Below, piece after piece: positions 38,027 through 44,263 of a DNA stretch of 64,000 nt. The notes under the pieces were generated by a model. That model searched no databases. It was not told where the DNA came from and saw only the letters and a list, made by a program, of their open reading frames with translations. How positions within the stretch are numbered: position 1 is the stretch's first letter; the number at the start of each line of letters is the position of its first letter. Source of the DNA: a virus. Position numbers and translations under genes: made by a program. The stretch is from IMG/VR virus record IMGVR_UViG_3300003430_000799; one strand, written 5' to 3'.

Positions 38027-38422
38027 TTATTTGTTTTTAACTTTATCAATCAATATATTAATTAGAACATCCTCAGCCTCCTCATAAGTTCCATAATAAT
38101 CATCATAAATTTTATCTTTAAATCCCTCCCATATACAATATGTGAATATGTTTGTCATATCAAAACCCCCTTCAATGAGTCCAATGATATTATATTTCTC
38201 TCTGAACCATTTGAAGACCTGTTGTTTGAGTGGTATTTCAACAAACCTATCATCAAACTTCTCTTTCATTATATCACCAATGTCAACACCTTCAACATCA
38301 AGAACATCCATAAACTTCCACAAAATATGTCCATTTGGATTACCAACTTTTAAACAAGGTTCATTAAATCCCAACTCTTTAAGTTGGAGTGCTTGTTCGT
38401 AAGATACAAATAAATCTTTCAT
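38027..38422 (-). CDS. YEQALQLKELGF paralog 3
   Basis: One of three tandem paralogs. Confidence 0.85.
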   Translation of the reverse strand: MKDLFVSYEQALQLKELGFNEPCLKVGNPNGHILWKFMDVLDVEGVDIGDIMKEKFDDRFVEIPLKQQVFKWFREKYNIIGLIEGGFDMTNIFTYCIWEGFKDKIYDDYYGTYEEAEDVLINILIDKVKNK

Positions 38423-38805
38423 TATGGTTTGTTTTTAACGATTTCAATTAATTTGTTGGTAAGGGAATTCTCGCATTCCTCATACGTATTGTATTTATGT
38501 CCCTCCCACCTATCATCTTCTGAGTTGATGTAGTATCTACACCAAGGATACATTCCTTCAATATACCCATGCAATTCACACTTCTCTCTGAACCATCGTA
38601 GAACTTGTTGTTTGAGTGGAGCTGTAACTTTATTAATTTTACTCGCATCACTATTTTTAGCTGAATTTATGTCATAAGATGATAATTGAGGTACTGTCAT
38701 CAATTTATTTTCATCATCTTGGTTATAACCAAATAGACAAGGTTCATCAAATCCAAGTTCTTTTAACTGAATAGCTTGCTCATAAGATATAAATAAATCT
38801 TTCAT
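38422..38805 (-). CDS. YEQALQLKELGF paralog 2
   Basis: One of three tandem paralogs. Confidence 0.85.
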   Translation of the reverse strand: MKDLFISYEQAIQLKELGFDEPCLFGYNQDDENKLMTVPQLSSYDINSAKNSDASKINKVTAPLKQQVLRWFREKCELHGYIEGMYPWCRYYINSEDDRWEGHKYNTYEECENSLTNKLIEIVKNKP

Positions 38806-38806
38806 A

Positions 38807-39211
38807 TTATTTTTGTTTAACTACTTCAATTAACTTGGATATACAAGCATCTTCAGCTTCTTCATAAGAATTATATCCTCTTTGTATAGGTTTATCAGCT
38901 CTTCCATCTTCAACAAAATAACTGATTAAAAAACCAAATGTCTTATTATCATCTACAAATATCTCACAATAATAATCATATTTCTCACGAAACCATTTTA
39001 AGACTTGTGATGATGTTGGTAATCCAATGTTCTCAACCTTAGAACCCCAAATTTGAGCACTCCATTCTTCGTGACTATTTGTAATTGGACTTCTTTGTTC
39101 TGAATAACAATATCTGACATCTTCATCAGGTATATTGTACCAAGCCCAACAAAGTTCATCGAATCCCAGTTGTTTCAGTTCTAAAGCTTGAGTGTGTGTG
39201 ATAAATTCCAT
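38807..39211 (-). CDS. YEQALQLKELGF paralog 1
   Basis: One of three tandem paralogs; promoter TTTG-N19-TATCTTTG at 39233-39263. Confidence 0.85.
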   Translation of the reverse strand: MEFITHTQALELKQLGFDELCWAWYNIPDEDVRYCYSEQRSPITNSHEEWSAQIWGSKVENIGLPTSSQVLKWFREKYDYYCEIFVDDNKTFGFLISYFVEDGRADKPIQRGYNSYEEAEDACISKLIEVVKQK

Positions 39212-39244: not shown

Positions 39245-39496
39245 TTAATCCTCAATTTCCAAAATGTAATTTGAGTTTTTGGTTGAAAATATTAATTTAT
39301 TTCCATCTTTGGTGAATGAGGTAATTTCTGTGGTTAACCAAGTATAACTGAAATGATGGGGGTCAATCATAACTGACCTACCTTCAGCTGGTTCATCGTG
39401 TTTATTGGAAAATCTTCCATCTTCATCCCATTCAATGAATATCACTTGTTCACCTATTATGGTTTTATTGTCTCTTTCTCTGGTTAATCTGTACAT
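39245..39496 (-). CDS. Hypothetical protein
   Basis: WLTTEI...FSTKNSNY. Confidence 0.75.
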   Translation of the reverse strand: MYRLTRERDNKTIIGEQVIFIEWDEDGRFSNKHDEPAEGRSVMIDPHHFSYTWLTTEITSFTKDGNKLIFSTKNSNYILEIED

Positions 39497-39702
39497 ATAT
39501 TTGTGTTAGGTTCAATGATTATAATTTGTTTTGGTTTATCTAATTTATCCAATCGTTTTTTATAACGTTCTTCTTCAGCTTTCCAACTTTGATATTCTTT
39601 TCTGAAGTCATCAAATGTATAATTTTCTTTTTCAAGAAAAGATTTAAGTTCATTTACTGGGAGTTTACCAACTTTATTATAAAATTCTTCTTTGTAACTC
39701 AT
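39484..39702 (-). CDS. Hypothetical protein
   Basis: 72-aa ORF. Confidence 0.7.
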   Translation of the reverse strand: MSYKEEFYNKVGKLPVNELKSFLEKENYTFDDFRKEYQSWKAEEERYKKRLDKLDKPKQIIIIEPNTNICTD

Positions 39703-39716
39703 ATTTTTATTTTTTG

Positions 39717-39826
39717 TAGTTAGGACAGGATTCGAACCTGTATTCTCAGATAATCATTTGTTCTCAGATTTTACTCCTCCAAACGAACTCCTTTCCTCCG
39801 GCGGATTACCAACTTCCAACCTAACT
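39717..39826 (-). ncRNA. tRNA-like element 1 (acceptor AGTTAGG/CCTAACT, T-arm; no canonical anticodon arm)
   Basis: ACAGG-TTCGAAT-CCTGT T-arm; compensatory acceptor-stem changes relative to elements 2-4. Confidence 0.7.
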
Positions 39827-39831
39827 TTTTG

Positions 39832-39923
39832 TAGTCCTGACAGGATTCGAACCTGTAAATTGTGAAGGGGTTACGACCTTACCTATATTCTATTTTTGCG
39901 TCTACCAATTCCGCCACAGGACT
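39832..39923 (-). ncRNA. tRNA-like element 2
   Basis: AGTCCTG/CAGGACT acceptor, GGCGGAATTGGTAGACGC D-arm, T-arm; ~40-nt centre without a canonical anticodon stem. Confidence 0.75.
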
Positions 39924-39927
39924 ATTT

Positions 39928-40206
39928 TTAGTTCATAGGTCTTTTACTCAAGATTTCATCAATCTGTTTTAATATATCTCCAGATGAATCAGTAATAGTT
40001 AATAAAGAAATAATATCTAATCTTGTTTTCATTTCCTCTGTTAAACCCCATCCACTAGAACATCTTTCAGCTTGCTTACCAAACATTTCTATAAACTTAT
40101 CTTCAACTGCTCGTCTTAATGGCCAATCACCTCCAAATGGAACTTTATTTCTATCAATAGGACCTATTTTACAAAACCAATATTCTAATTTTTCTTTATT
40201 TTTCAT
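39928..40206 (-). CDS. Hypothetical protein between tRNA-like elements
   Basis: 92-aa ORF. Confidence 0.75.
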   Translation of the reverse strand: MKNKEKLEYWFCKIGPIDRNKVPFGGDWPLRRAVEDKFIEMFGKQAERCSSGWGLTEEMKTRLDIISLLTITDSSGDILKQIDEILSKRPMN

Positions 40207-40221
40207 ATCATTTTATTTTTG

Positions 40222-40298
40222 TAGTCCTGACAGGATTCGAACCTGTAAACTTCCCCTTCACTTAAGGAGGGGTCACGTGTGCCTTCCGCCACAGGACT
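40222..40298 (-). ncRNA. tRNA-like element 3 (near tRNA size; atypical anticodon arm, possibly Leu-UAA-like)
   Basis: Same acceptor and T-arm; CCCCT/AGGGG stem around CCTTAAGTGA. Confidence 0.65.
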
Positions 40299-40307
40299 AT
40301 TGTGTCA

Positions 40308-40338
40308 CAAAATTACAATTTGATTTTCTTATTTCAAA
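40308..40338 (-). promoter_or_regulatory. Bacteroidota-type promoter directly upstream of tRNA-like element 3
   Basis: TTTG-N19-TAATTTTG. Confidence 0.7.
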
Positions 40339-40340
40339 AT

Positions 40341-40889
40341 TTAATCAAAAATATATTTTCCCACCCATTCAGTTTTAATTAAAATTCCATTTTTTAAATA
40401 CTCATCTTTAGTTTCAAACTCAAATCCAATAGGCATCTTTAGTTGTTGGAGGGATTTGATAAATTCAATAAAATCCCCTCCATACCAATTATTACCTTTA
40501 TCTAATTGTCCTGCTTTAAAGGCCTCTCTCATATCCTCCTCTGTGTACTTATACTTCGCTTTGGCTTTGTTATAGCCTTGGAAAAATCCATGATAAACAT
40601 CGTCTTGTGCAGTTTCATATATTGAATGATTTTTAGAATACTCTTCTGCCAACCTTTCAACATCATCTTCAATTGGTGGTAATAAATCTACACCATTGAG
40701 AATGGAAGCTCCATTTAAAGGTAAATGTGCTATGATTTTTTTATATCTACCTTTATTAGGATTTACCGAATCTAAAGGATAATTGCCAACTTTATTTTTG
40801 TTAATCTTAATATGCCAATCACCTTCCGTAATCTTACTATCATCGACAACAAGTAGATAGTTGTCTGTTTTAATTATGTTGTGTCTCAT
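40341..40889 (-). CDS. Hypothetical protein between tRNA-like elements
   Basis: KKIIAHLPL...YTEEDMREAF modules. Confidence 0.75.
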   Translation of the reverse strand: MRHNIIKTDNYLLVVDDSKITEGDWHIKINKNKVGNYPLDSVNPNKGRYKKIIAHLPLNGASILNGVDLLPPIEDDVERLAEEYSKNHSIYETAQDDVYHGFFQGYNKAKAKYKYTEEDMREAFKAGQLDKGNNWYGGDFIEFIKSLQQLKMPIGFEFETKDEYLKNGILIKTEWVGKYIFD

Positions 40890-40906
40890 AGTCTATTAAT
40901 TTTTTG

Positions 40907-41019
40907 TAGTCCTGACAGGATTCGAACCTGTATTTGTATATGTTTGTGACCTCGACTGCCGCTGTATCCTCAAACTAAATCACCTGCCGATGTGCGTCTA
41001 CCAATTCCGCCACAGGACT
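40907..41019 (-). ncRNA. tRNA-like element 4
   Basis: Arms identical to element 2; ~60-nt unrelated centre. Confidence 0.75.
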
Positions 41020-41028
41020 AATTTTTTA

Positions 41029-41060
41029 CAAAAATAGACACACCAATTGACATTTCCAAA
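41029..41060 (-). promoter_or_regulatory. Bacteroidota-type promoter directly upstream of tRNA-like element 4
   Basis: TTTG-N20-TATTTTTG. Confidence 0.7.
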
Positions 41061-41143
41061 CAATAATCAAAAAATATTTTGGTTATAGATGTTTTTGTTA
41101 TTTTAAAATATTTATATTTAAATAAAAATACAAAAAAAACACA

Positions 41144-41398
41144 ATGAAAAAGATAGTAAAACTTACAGAAACAGATTTAACTAGATTGGTTAAAAGAGTA
41201 ATCAATGAAGAGTATTGGAAGGATTATAATGAGGAATTAGAAGAACTAGAATCTAATTTGGATATGATTCAGGAAAGACTTGAGGGACTAACTCAAATTA
41301 TTGATAATGATGATAATTTAGACGATGATGAAAAGGATAATTTACAAGATTATGTTGATGAATTATATATTAGGTGTAAACCAAAGAAAAGACGATAA
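41144..41398 (+). CDS. Small acidic protein, MKKIVKLTETDL leader
   Basis: Leader; TATTTAT at 41109; terminator at 41399-41433. Confidence 0.8.
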   Translation: MKKIVKLTETDLTRLVKRVINEEYWKDYNEELEELESNLDMIQERLEGLTQIIDNDDNLDDDEKDNLQDYVDELYIRCKPKKRR

Positions 41399-41434
41399 AA
41401 AATAAACCCCATCTAAATCAGGTGGGGTTTTTTA

Positions 41435-44263
41435 TTAGAACTTATGACTAACACCCAATGTTAAAGTCACACCAGGATTAACACTATTGAATACTTGTTT
41501 CTCAGCTTTATAGGAGTGATAAAAACTCTCAACTCTATCATTAAGAATATTTTGAACTCTAAAATCAATTGATGTATTCTTAATCTTTTGACTTACAGAA
41601 AGATTCAATGAATGGAATGATTCATCATAAACATCAGGAGATAATCCAGTTCCAACAATGGATAATGTTTGTCCTTTAACATTATAAAACAACCCAACAT
41701 TCAACCCAATTTTATCGTTCTTATAAGATAATCCAGTATTGATTACAAATGGTGATTGTCCTGCCATAACTCTTGTATTGTCTATGTTTTCATTTAACCT
41801 TTCATATTGTTTTCTTGCTTGATATTCTGTCTCTGTCATCGTTATTTGTGACTTAACGAGTGTGACATTGGTATTGAAATAAAAGTTCTTTAGAAACGAT
41901 TTTCTTAACTCAAATTCCAATCCATACACATCACCATTACCAACATTCCTTGGTTGATATTCAGTTGATGTTTGTTGTTCAGGTATTCTAACAAGTTCAA
42001 TTGGATTATTGAAATGTTTATAAAACCCAGATATTGAATATAAATCATTTTTATTGGATAACTCCCATCTTAAATCCAAGTTATCAATATTTGTTGATTT
42101 CAAATTTCCATCCCAAGTTCCATTATATGTGAATAAACCACCATTGAATATTCTATTTGTGATTGGGTCTAATATCTGAGCATAAGATAATTCCTTGAAT
42201 GATGGTCTCGCAATCGTTCTTGAATATGATGTTCTTAGATTTTGTTTTGGTGTTATTGAATATATGATATTTGTTGATGGGAATAGATTTATCGTTTCCA
42301 TAACTTTATCATTAACCAAATTGTTTCCATTCACATCACCATTGGCATATCTTATATCTCTTCCTGTATGTCTTTGAATAAAGTATTCAGTTCTTAACCC
42401 CAAATTAATCTTTAACTTGTTTTTGATATTATAATCACCTGAAACATATACACCAAGATTATTAACATTTGATGAATATTGATTTGGATTTGGATTCACA
42501 TTACCAGATTGAATATAAGTTCCATTGACATCAGATGGATATAAGTTATCACTATTCATAACAAGATTGGGGTCTGGTGATGCCCAAGATTGTGGTTTTG
42601 AAAACATCAATTCAAATAACTTGATTTCATAGTTTCTCAATTTATATACGTGAGATAAACCAAAGTTCAATTTGAAGTTTTCATATTCTTTATTTATATC
42701 AATCTTTGATTGGTTATTAAATTCACCCAAGTTTCTCCATATCCTTGATGGATTTCCCGCTTCACCTGATGAGAATGAATATGAACCATCATAACTAAAT
42801 GGTGTCTTTCTAATGTCAGGGTCAATTGATGATGAATAAGTTGGGGATAATTTCCAATCAATATTCCAATTGTTTATCTTGTGTTTTCCACTTAATAGTA
42901 AATTGGTTAATCCTCTTTGATTGTATTCAAGATTATATGATGTTGCATCATAACCTGATTGTCCAACAGCTGATGAATTGTTTGATATGTTGAACTTACC
43001 AGCTCTACTTTCACCACTCTGTAAATGAATTAGATTTAATTTGTATTTACTCTTACCTTTAACAAAATTGAATCCAACTAAACCTCCCAATAGATTATTA
43101 ATTTCAGTTAATTGTCCTGATTGTTTTGTTGCATAAATCAAATCATATTGTGAGTTATCAGTTACCCTTTGGTATTCACCATACTTTACATTAGTATAAA
43201 ATCTATAATCTGTTTTTTGATTTAATGATACAATATAACCAAACTTTTTATTTGTTCTTCCATAAGAAAATCCACCGCCAAAATCCAAGAATGGCATACC
43301 ATTAACACCACCCAATTCAGGATTCAAACTTCTTAAAGTATTAATAATATTCTGTTGATGTTGTGCTGAACTTATACTTGATGGTTTGTTATATGGGGTT
43401 GGGATATAACTACTTCTTAGTTCATTTGGTAATCTTCTTATTCCACCATCAAATCCTAATATGTCAGTCATACTTCCTTTCTCACTAAAGAAATTATTAT
43501 TGAAGTGGGTTTGATTATTAAATCCTGTGGTTATTGAAAATGAACCTTGTGGTGTTTCAGGTATATCTTTTGTTTCAATATTTATTAATCCACCTGTAAA
43601 ATCTGCTGGTAATTCAGCTGAGAAACTTTTTGATACGACAATATTATTTAATAAATTGGTGGGGAATATATCCATTTGAAGTGAGTTTCTGTCGGGGTCT
43701 AACCCAGGTATTTCAACACCATTCATTATTGTCTTTGAGTATCTATCACCCAATCCTCTAACATAAACATATTTTCCATTATCTATTGATACACCAGTGA
43801 CTCGTTTACTTGCTTCAACGGCATTACCATCACCAGTTGATTTCATTTTCTCAGAACTAATACCATCAACCATTGTGACTGATTTCATTTTCATATCAAT
43901 CAGACCAATTTCATTTTTAACAATTCTGTCTGCGGTAATAACAACTTCACCAGTTTCTAATACATCTTCTTTAAGAATAATATCAGGGATGGTTGTTAAT
44001 TCACCAACCAATACAATATTTTCTTGGATTTCTTTTTTATATGAGACATATGAGAACTCTAATGTAACAGTGTCTTTGTCTGAGTCTATTGTGAATATAC
44101 CTTCAATGTCTGTTGTTGTACCAACTGAAGTTTCTTTGATTATAACTGTAACACCAATTAGAGGTTCTTTTGTATTTTCATCAACAACTTTACCAATGAT
44201 TGTAAATTGTGAAAAGGATTTAAATGATAATAGGAGTAATAGGACTAGAAAGATATTTTTCAT
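41435..44263 (-). CDS. TonB-dependent outer-membrane receptor (Bacteroidota type)
   Basis: Signal peptide; N-terminal GKVVDENTKEPLIGVTV domain; plug VYVRGLGDRY...GGLINIET; SRTIARPSF; C-terminal Phe. Confidence 0.92.
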   Translation of the reverse strand: MKNIFLVLLLLLSFKSFSQFTIIGKVVDENTKEPLIGVTVIIKETSVGTTTDIEGIFTIDSDKDTVTLEFSYVSYKKEIQENIVLVGELTTIPDIILKEDVLETGEVVITADRIVKNEIGLIDMKMKSVTMVDGISSEKMKSTGDGNAVEASKRVTGVSIDNGKYVYVRGLGDRYSKTIMNGVEIPGLDPDRNSLQMDIFPTNLLNNIVVSKSFSAELPADFTGGLINIETKDIPETPQGSFSITTGFNNQTHFNNNFFSEKGSMTDILGFDGGIRRLPNELRSSYIPTPYNKPSSISSAQHQQNIINTLRSLNPELGGVNGMPFLDFGGGFSYGRTNKKFGYIVSLNQKTDYRFYTNVKYGEYQRVTDNSQYDLIYATKQSGQLTEINNLLGGLVGFNFVKGKSKYKLNLIHLQSGESRAGKFNISNNSSAVGQSGYDATSYNLEYNQRGLTNLLLSGKHKINNWNIDWKLSPTYSSSIDPDIRKTPFSYDGSYSFSSGEAGNPSRIWRNLGEFNNQSKIDINKEYENFKLNFGLSHVYKLRNYEIKLFELMFSKPQSWASPDPNLVMNSDNLYPSDVNGTYIQSGNVNPNPNQYSSNVNNLGVYVSGDYNIKNKLKINLGLRTEYFIQRHTGRDIRYANGDVNGNNLVNDKVMETINLFPSTNIIYSITPKQNLRTSYSRTIARPSFKELSYAQILDPITNRIFNGGLFTYNGTWDGNLKSTNIDNLDLRWELSNKNDLYSISGFYKHFNNPIELVRIPEQQTSTEYQPRNVGNGDVYGLEFELRKSFLKNFYFNTNVTLVKSQITMTETEYQARKQYERLNENIDNTRVMAGQSPFVINTGLSYKNDKIGLNVGLFYNVKGQTLSIVGTGLSPDVYDESFHSLNLSVSQKIKNTSIDFRVQNILNDRVESFYHSYKAEKQVFNSVNPGVTLTLGVSHKF

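Follow-up and report, generated by a model that had tools for sequence, protein, structure and literature searches.

What kind of RNA is encoded where a phage interleaves small genes with tRNA-shaped elements that share their arms but enclose unrelated centres? The question arises from a 64,000-nucleotide (nt) stretch of the virus record IMGVR_UViG_3300003430_000799 (the window, meaning the whole stretch that was analysed), in which a sequence-only reading had picked out an array of transfer RNA (tRNA)-scaffold elements within positions 39717–41060. We name these elements by position as D (39717–39826), C (39832–39923), B (40222–40298) and A (40907–41019), all on the minus strand. Our analysis favours, with moderate confidence, the view that A–D are non-decoding RNAs on a leucine-tRNA frame, which would be excised by tRNA enzymes, would possibly be leucylated, and would carry a structured insert that acts in trans. 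The earlier proposal that these are not decoding tRNAs is supported for A, C and D, in which structure is under selection, and is likely for B. Beyond that proposal, the frame is specifically that of leucine tRNA and includes the identity set of leucyl-tRNA synthetase (LeuRS), the family is huge and phage-specific, and stable RNAs of phages T5 and T4 are similarly built.

Every element has a 7-base-pair (bp) acceptor stem, a 5-bp T stem and a T loop with the consensus UUCGAAU. The T arm ACAGG-TTCGAAT-CCTGT is present in all four, which compares with 0.06 exact copies expected in 64 kb. The acceptor AGTCCTG/CAGGACT is common to A, B and C, whereas D has AGTTAGG/CCTAACT, with three pairs altered on both sides relative to the other three. 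The D arms of A and C are identical and of the leucine type, and their loop AATTGGTAGA is that of the bacterial tRNA-Leu D arm. The D/T-loop elbow is kept in the elements, and U48 is present in A, B and C. Each element ends with A73 followed by C and an A-rich trailer, CCA not being encoded; the ordinary tRNAs of related phages have the same CCA-less ends and C plus A-rich trailers. In all these details our results confirm the sequence-only reading, which had described four minus-strand elements with a shared T arm, CCA-less ends, a compensated acceptor in one and a Leu-type D arm in two.

The region between the D arm and the T arm is 62 nt long in A (113 nt in total, with a structured insert), 41 nt in C (92 nt, the same frame as A, with a conserved hairpin), about 60 nt in D (110 nt, with a non-leucine D arm that contains GG) and 24–29 nt in B (77 nt, with a reduced frame), and these sequences are mutually dissimilar. 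A stem at the anticodon position exists in B alone (CCCCU/AGGGG), where it closes a loop of 10 nt instead of 7 that contains CUUAAGU, and a 5-bp stem with a 7-nt loop in register is absent from A, C and D. These observations bear out the earlier description of an anticodon/variable region replaced by unrelated inserts, with an anticodon-like arm in one element. Pseudogene or undetermined calls had been expected from tRNA finders; ARAGORN does miss A, C and D, but it calls B as Leu-UAA. The Rfam tRNA model RF00005 gives A 40.9, B 40.4, C 41 and D 17.8 bits (gathering threshold 29), and the scores of A–C come from the frame, since 35–57 nt (A and C) or 11 nt (B) are aligned as an insertion at the anticodon arm. 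In this analysis we also made a covariance model of the frame, R1, trained on 45 members from other contigs. R1 finds exactly four matches in the window, scoring C 78.2, A 70.6, B 55.1 and D 49 bits, and the next best hit reaches 15.9 bits.

Elements on this leucine-tRNA frame form a family found on more than 200 uncultured phage contigs (denoted here by L numbers). The 25-nt 3′ end, comprising the T arm, the acceptor strand and the terminal A, occurs at 46 IMG/VR loci and 60 metagenome loci, and a sister frame with the compensated acceptor AGTCAGG/CCTGACT at at least 120 more loci. Relative records contain 6–17 R1 matches each, about 9–13 of them strong in the three richest records, and numerous members are embedded in ordinary tRNA arrays of phages, with the next tRNA a few nt away. 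Elements were gathered by a pattern-limited search, and a separate sample was drawn by a covariance model. The extracted set holds 193 distinct CCA-less elements with about 155 insert types, 127 of which are seen once; inserts across the family are 17–161 nt long (median 58 nt). Neither frame occurs among 50,697 isolate phage records, and the 25-mer is found among 185,579 prokaryote genomes (one per species) only in one mis-binned phage contig, on which ground an origin from a host tRNA or attachment (att) site was rejected. The family is phage-specific and very diverse. No description of it was found by a full-text search, which left out the older T4 and T5 papers.

Related genes accompany the family in some contigs. 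A 90–91-nt, CCA-encoding tRNA with the anticodon UAU and a long extra arm shares its T arm and acceptor with the elements that bear inserts; it is carried by L003, L005, L017, L025, L036, L038, L041 and others (e.g. L005:7816–7908), resembles a class-II-shaped decoder of AUA, and its anticodon stem covaries. Another CCA-encoding tRNA with the same T arm and acceptor (L080:1039–1219, minus strand) has an anticodon stem that encloses about 105 extra nt, which perhaps represent a short intervening sequence of this phage tRNA. Finally, a full transfer-messenger RNA (tmRNA; Rfam, 76 bits) is encoded at L010:202–583 (plus strand), on a contig with many family members.

The compensated acceptor of D had been read as a sign of structural selection, and this suggestion is supported by compensated stems across the family. 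The model-drawn sample includes at least six versions of the acceptor, all of them compensated (AGTCCTG/CAGGACT, AGTCAGG/CCTGACT, AGTTAGG/CCTAACT, AGTCTTG/CAAGACT, AGTCCTA/TAGGACT and GGTCAAG/CTTGACT), and three versions of the T stem, among them the compensated variants ATAGG/CCTAT and ACAAG/CTTGT. A73 is kept in 17 of 20 members that were found by the model and not by the pattern, and a U directly 5′ of the T stem (U48) is seen in 112 of the 118 elements with a leucine-type D arm, fitting an A15–U48 tertiary pair. The constant arms, searched in the window and its relatives, are compensated and not randomly decaying.

The inserts are conserved folded RNA modules that replace the anticodon and variable arms. 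The A-type insert occurs on six contigs, always within a frame, and five of the frames differ from that of the window. In the alignment of these six sequences all of the modelled pairs (27/27) form in every sequence; six pairs are altered on both sides, two of them in the long helix of the insert, a result matched by none of 500 shuffles. The loop of A at about 40951–40965 is invariant. The element of L242 differs from A at one position of the insert and about nine of the frame, and all differences in stems are compensated. One further insert type forms a pseudoknot whose second helix has two pairs altered on both sides, and in other types whole helices are exchanged while the loops stay constant. 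The hairpin of C consists of AAGG, the loop UCGUAACC and CCUU, with UCGUAAC/GC as the form of the loop; its relatives in L147, L172, L132 and L182 sit on another acceptor type and show one compensated pair at the hairpin base. The sole insert relative of D is an identical copy in L014. Taken together, the compensated arms and inserts across contigs argue that the elements are not decaying pseudogenes.

The insert of B is identical in L002, where it stands on an altered acceptor. Its 90-nt relatives in L185, L217 and L174 have kept an enlarged loop of 12 nt with a CUUAAGU core together with a long variable arm. As CUUAAGU is the core of the anticodon loop of tRNA-Leu(UAA), these long-armed relatives show that B descends from that tRNA. 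The loop of B (40251–40260, minus strand) also holds a palindrome, CUUAAG, that the 90-nt relatives retain and that could permit loop–loop dimerisation.

Across the family the inserts fold slightly better than their shuffled versions (mean z –0.58, p = 6e-4). They contain no Rfam family, either at gathering thresholds in the window and 14 loci or at permissive E-values in the region and 19 isolated elements. A second T-arm-like hairpin with a UUCRANY loop is present in 6 of 155 insert types (L030, L010, L137, L144, L190 and L196) compared with 0.4 expected; these hairpins are either nested pieces of tRNA or T-loop modules for tertiary contacts.

We also examined the sequences around the elements. 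A complete Bacteroidota-type promoter of the form TTTG-N19/20-TAnnTTTG stands 9 nt upstream of A and another 9 nt upstream of B, as foreseen by the sequence-only reading, which had given two elements promoters of their own. The promoter of A (41029–41060, minus strand) consists of TTTG, 20 nt and TATTTTTG, and that of B (40308–40338, minus strand) of TTTG, 19 nt and TAATTTTG; the 9 nt are counted from the end of the –7 box. Family-wide, a –7 box lies 6–12 nt upstream in 16 of 186 contexts compared with 0.7% in controls, an enrichment of about 13-fold. A promoter cassette of about 45 nt (TTTGGAAAT..., TAATTTTG, TGAnACAAT; window 40292–40338, minus strand) recurs nearly letter for letter in at least eight other contigs, including L004, L009, L010, L011, L037, L039 and L091, where it precedes family members, and it may travel with the elements. 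Downstream, and likewise on the minus strand, an open reading frame (ORF) of 182 amino acids (aa; 40341–40889) starts 17 nt past A, one of 92 aa (39928–40206) 15 nt past B and one of 72 aa (39484–39702) 14 nt past D. None of the three belongs to a known family, and no function was obtained for them from Pfam or PHROG. D begins 5 nt past the end of C.

The part of a tRNA that is conserved here is the one that RNase P, RNase Z, the CCA-adding enzyme and the enzymes that modify the T loop recognise. In the reading that we favour, the promoters of A and B would drive their transcription from a few nt ahead of the mature 5′ end, and C and D would be transcribed by read-through. RNase P, RNase Z and the CCA-adding enzyme of the host would then excise the RNAs as they do the ordinary CCA-less tRNAs of the phage, yielding stable L-shaped small RNAs. 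The same cuts would free downstream mRNAs with short A-rich leaders that start 14–17 nt later, so that punctuation of the transcript is likely to be a side effect. The insert would be the working part and would act in trans on a putative host or phage partner, and the fast replacement of inserts suggests an accessory role, which might lie in taking over the host or in countering its defences.

LeuRS belongs to the small group of synthetases that ignore the anticodon, which is a possible reason why the leucine frame became the carrier. In Escherichia coli, leucine identity depends on A73, A15–U48, G18G19, A20a and an intact D/T-loop interaction, and tRNA-Leu without its anticodon and variable arms is still charged (PMC9976931). 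By sequence, A and C have the whole of this identity set (D loop AAUUGGUAGA, U before the T stem, A73), B has part of it, and D is doubtful. As the LeuRS identity set is retained and neither the anticodon nor the variable arm is needed, it is conceivable that A–D are leucylated in cells.

Several points weigh against this reading. We infer transcription, processing, CCA addition and charging from the sequences, and the partner or target of every insert is hypothetical. The leucine-type D arm is present in about 61% of members and is lacking in D, and where it occurs it could be kept by ancestry and the needs of folding alone. The covariation counts for each insert type come from 3–6 sequences. 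Moreover, a stem at the anticodon position is weakly enriched across inserts and there is no common insert architecture, so that it may be mistaken to assume a single mechanism. Some inserts resemble debris of recombination, and that of the 125-nt element of L014 contains a piece of the 3′ end of another element.

Of the other explanations, two give the elements a task in gene expression or gene exchange that does not involve the insert. The frames could serve solely as cutting sites for RNase P and RNase Z in polycistronic early transcripts, which would set the ends and stability of the mRNAs, with the inserts as tolerated filler. This agrees with the promoters directly upstream of A and B and with the ORF starts 14–17 nt past A, B and D, a spacing that extends to the family, in which an ORF starts 10–30 nt downstream in 39% of cases compared with 9% at random positions. 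However, C is followed by D and no ORF, many members lie inside pure tRNA arrays, and L014 has the 182-aa ORF behind the same promoter without A. The same insert adjoins different ORFs or none: homologues of the 182-aa ORF in other phages stand beside different inserts or none, A-type inserts stand beside other ORFs, an 86%-identical homologue of the 92-aa ORF follows a family member in L179, and no linkage was found between insert type and neighbouring ORF. Since the inserts are kept across these unrelated contexts with compensatory changes, pure punctuation is unlikely; the mRNA punctuation proposed by the sequence-only reading probably exists as a side effect but leaves the conserved inserts unexplained. 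The same reading had offered homology anchors for cassette exchange, and a role at the DNA level would make the constant arms recombination anchors or the ends of mobile cassettes that shuffle accessory ORFs, similar to the promoter/stem-loop cassettes reported for T4-type hyperplastic regions. Such exchange is visible in L014 and L048, whose flanks are 96–97% identical to the window and which differ from it by whole cassettes. In the window A is flanked by the direct repeat AAAAAATT, whereas L014 has one copy of the repeat and A is exactly missing; in L014 one element with a different insert replaces the B insert, the 92-aa ORF and the C insert; and in L048 one element with another insert replaces everything from the A insert through the D insert, including two ORFs, with the 72-aa ORF directly after it. 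The breakpoints fall in the constant arms or the A-rich trailer, so that the arms do act as substrates of recombination, and one insert is found on different frames. Homology anchors, however, need no compensated stems, no U48, no elbow of GG and T loop and no covarying insert helices, and recombination at repeats is the expected by-product of many similar copies. No recombinase co-occurs, and there is no constant companion protein: the most widespread neighbour cluster is present at 35 of 227 loci, Pfam gives no match for its representative, and the remaining top clusters consist of ordinary phage genes. Anchoring is therefore an observed consequence of the arms but fails as the reason for a kept RNA fold, and we judge a DNA-level role to be quite improbable.

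The remaining alternatives concern what the RNA itself would be. Decoys or sponges for proteins that bind the upper half of tRNA (tRNA-targeting defence toxins, LeuRS, EF-Tu or tRNA-modifying enzymes) would have the frame as their active part; decoys were also among the options of the sequence-only reading. In their favour, the frame varies far less than the insert, the leucine identity set has been kept and there are several copies per genome. They leave the conserved, covarying and highly diverse inserts unexplained, and known anticodon nucleases act on exactly the part that these elements lack; we give this idea little weight. That the elements are unusual decoding tRNAs, B with a widened anticodon loop and A, C and D with inserts that are spliced out, draws on the ARAGORN call of B as tRNA-Leu(UAA), on the CUUAAGU in its loop, on the long variable arm of its relatives, and on the true CCA-encoding tRNA(UAU) with the same T arm and acceptor. 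It is at odds with the lack of a 5-bp stem and 7-nt loop in register in A, C and D, and with the loops of 10 nt in B and 12 nt in its relatives. An ordinary tRNA-Leu(UAA) is present in relatives as well, no Rfam intron or ribozyme family matches the inserts, and we know of no bacterial splicing system for inserts of 25–160 nt at the anticodon site. Decoding is thus very unlikely. Least credible of all are decaying pseudogenes that arose by duplication in a tRNA array; although some inserts resemble recombination scars, as in the 125-nt element of L014, some members have their own promoters, and arms and inserts are conserved with compensation across hundreds of contigs, so that this explanation is contradicted by the comparative data.

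Among the earlier options, processed carriers of a variable sequence therefore remain the best fit, and it is the 'carrier' part that stands. The proposal that the cargo is a guide or antisense sequence is unsupported, as the inserts are folded, covarying domains and have no significant complementarity in the window, where the search for targets gave only chance-level matches of 11–14 nt.

Since the 1970s–80s, T4 and T5 have been known to encode tRNA-like stable RNAs, for which, to our knowledge, no function has been described in about 50 years. RNA1 and RNA2 of T5 (AY543070), annotated as misc_RNA with the note 'tRNA-like stable RNA with unknown functions', come from a region that, like that of A–D, interleaves tRNAs, promoters and small ORFs. 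In T5 RNA1 the D arm is of the leucine type (loop AAUUGGUAGA), and together with a T arm and paired ends it surrounds an insert of about 75 nt; T5 RNA2 has the T arm GCAGG-UUCGAAU-CCUGU, a variant that occurs in this family, and an internal T-loop-like hairpin. They differ from the family in their acceptor sequences, are single copies with no known insert library, and score 19.4 and 21.4 bits with R1, below the ordinary tRNAs of T5. In T4, rnaC (species 1 RNA, 139 nt), annotated as a stable RNA, encloses a large folded insert and closes with a canonical T arm and a 3′ strand that resembles an acceptor strand. It lies with rnaD (species 2 RNA) at the end of the T4 tRNA cluster beside a homing endonuclease gene, with no function annotated for either. 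Both lack a leucine-type D arm, rnaD has no clear tRNA frame, and rnaC scores 25.9 bits with R1, in the range of ordinary T4 tRNAs. T5 RNA1 and RNA2, T4 rnaC and the family thus all place a large insert on a tRNA frame and are encoded in a phage region of tRNAs and ORFs; as R1 scores the T5 and T4 RNAs like ordinary tRNAs, they share an architecture but do not belong to the same sequence family.

Class II tRNA-Leu (RF00005) is the closest relative of the frame itself. A and C have an identical D arm (e.g. that of the normal phage tRNA-Leu of L053), A73, U48 and a canonical T loop, but in the family 17–161-nt inserts replace the anticodon and variable arms, and B has its 10-nt loop. tmRNA is similar in having a tRNA-like upper half, a synthetase that ignores the anticodon, and a lower half replaced by other RNA, often with pseudoknots. 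In contrast to tmRNA, family members have U3–A70 instead of G3–U70 and no recognisable tag reading frame, the elements are 77–113 nt long compared with about 350 nt, and no Rfam tmRNA match is found in the element region at E ≤ 10. YrlA/bacterial Y RNA, which ends in a Ro-binding stem and has a closed 'acceptor', was also considered and rejected, since the elements start and finish within the acceptor stem and Rfam gives no match besides tRNA. In the engineered 'tRNA scaffold' of Ponchon and Dardel, a cargo RNA reportedly takes the place of the anticodon arm and is processed and stabilised by cellular tRNA enzymes. The design is the same, but the scaffold is a laboratory device, whereas the leucine frame described here is natural and phage-encoded.

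The wider setting is that of an AT-rich phage genome (G+C of the window about 29%) in which most large ORFs have no family match. Close IMG/VR relatives are fragments of 62–141 kb that are 19–48% complete according to CheckV, which together suggest a phage of about 300 kb, and its host is probably a member of the Bacteroidota. A short way upstream of A, a 942-aa ORF (41435–44263, minus strand) has CarboxypepD_reg, Plug and TonB-dependent-receptor barrel domains and is SusC-like; amid what otherwise resembles a phage accessory region, it is either an outer-membrane gene of host type with an auxiliary role or a hint at a host in the Bacteroidota. Between this ORF and the array, a 350-nt stretch (41080–41430) with an 84-aa ORF (41144–41398, plus strand) is missing from the 96%-identical L014 and so forms a further indel by the array. 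On the other side, two tandem paralogous ORFs of 127 and 134 aa (38422–39211, minus strand) both match phrog_25117; several more diverged copies of this segment in L014, L070 and L137 suggest a small gene family that is expanding beside the array.

The data also allow a broader view, which we put forward only tentatively and regard as doubtful at present. Phages might run an unrecognised class of trans-acting RNAs, with hundreds of modules carried on anticodon-less leucine-tRNA frames that are matured, CCA-tailed and charged with leucine by host enzymes. Under this broader view, the mechanism would include charging or the binding of EF-Tu, as for tmRNA with alanine, modules would be swapped at the constant arms in an arms race with the host, and the same principle would lie behind the stable RNAs of T4 and T5.

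In summary, the family is a very large variant of the phage tRNA-like stable RNAs and a natural equivalent of the tRNA scaffold that was engineered to express recombinant RNA. For annotation, it means that tRNA finders miss or mislabel such genes, as seen here with the one 'tRNA-Leu' and three misses of ARAGORN. For phage biology, it turns the isolated oddities of T4 and T5 into a comparative data set, with one constant frame, more than 150 insert types, structures backed by covariation, and natural swaps of inserts and cassettes between near-identical phages. Processing, charging, the binding of inserts and their effects on host takeover or defence thereby become directly testable.

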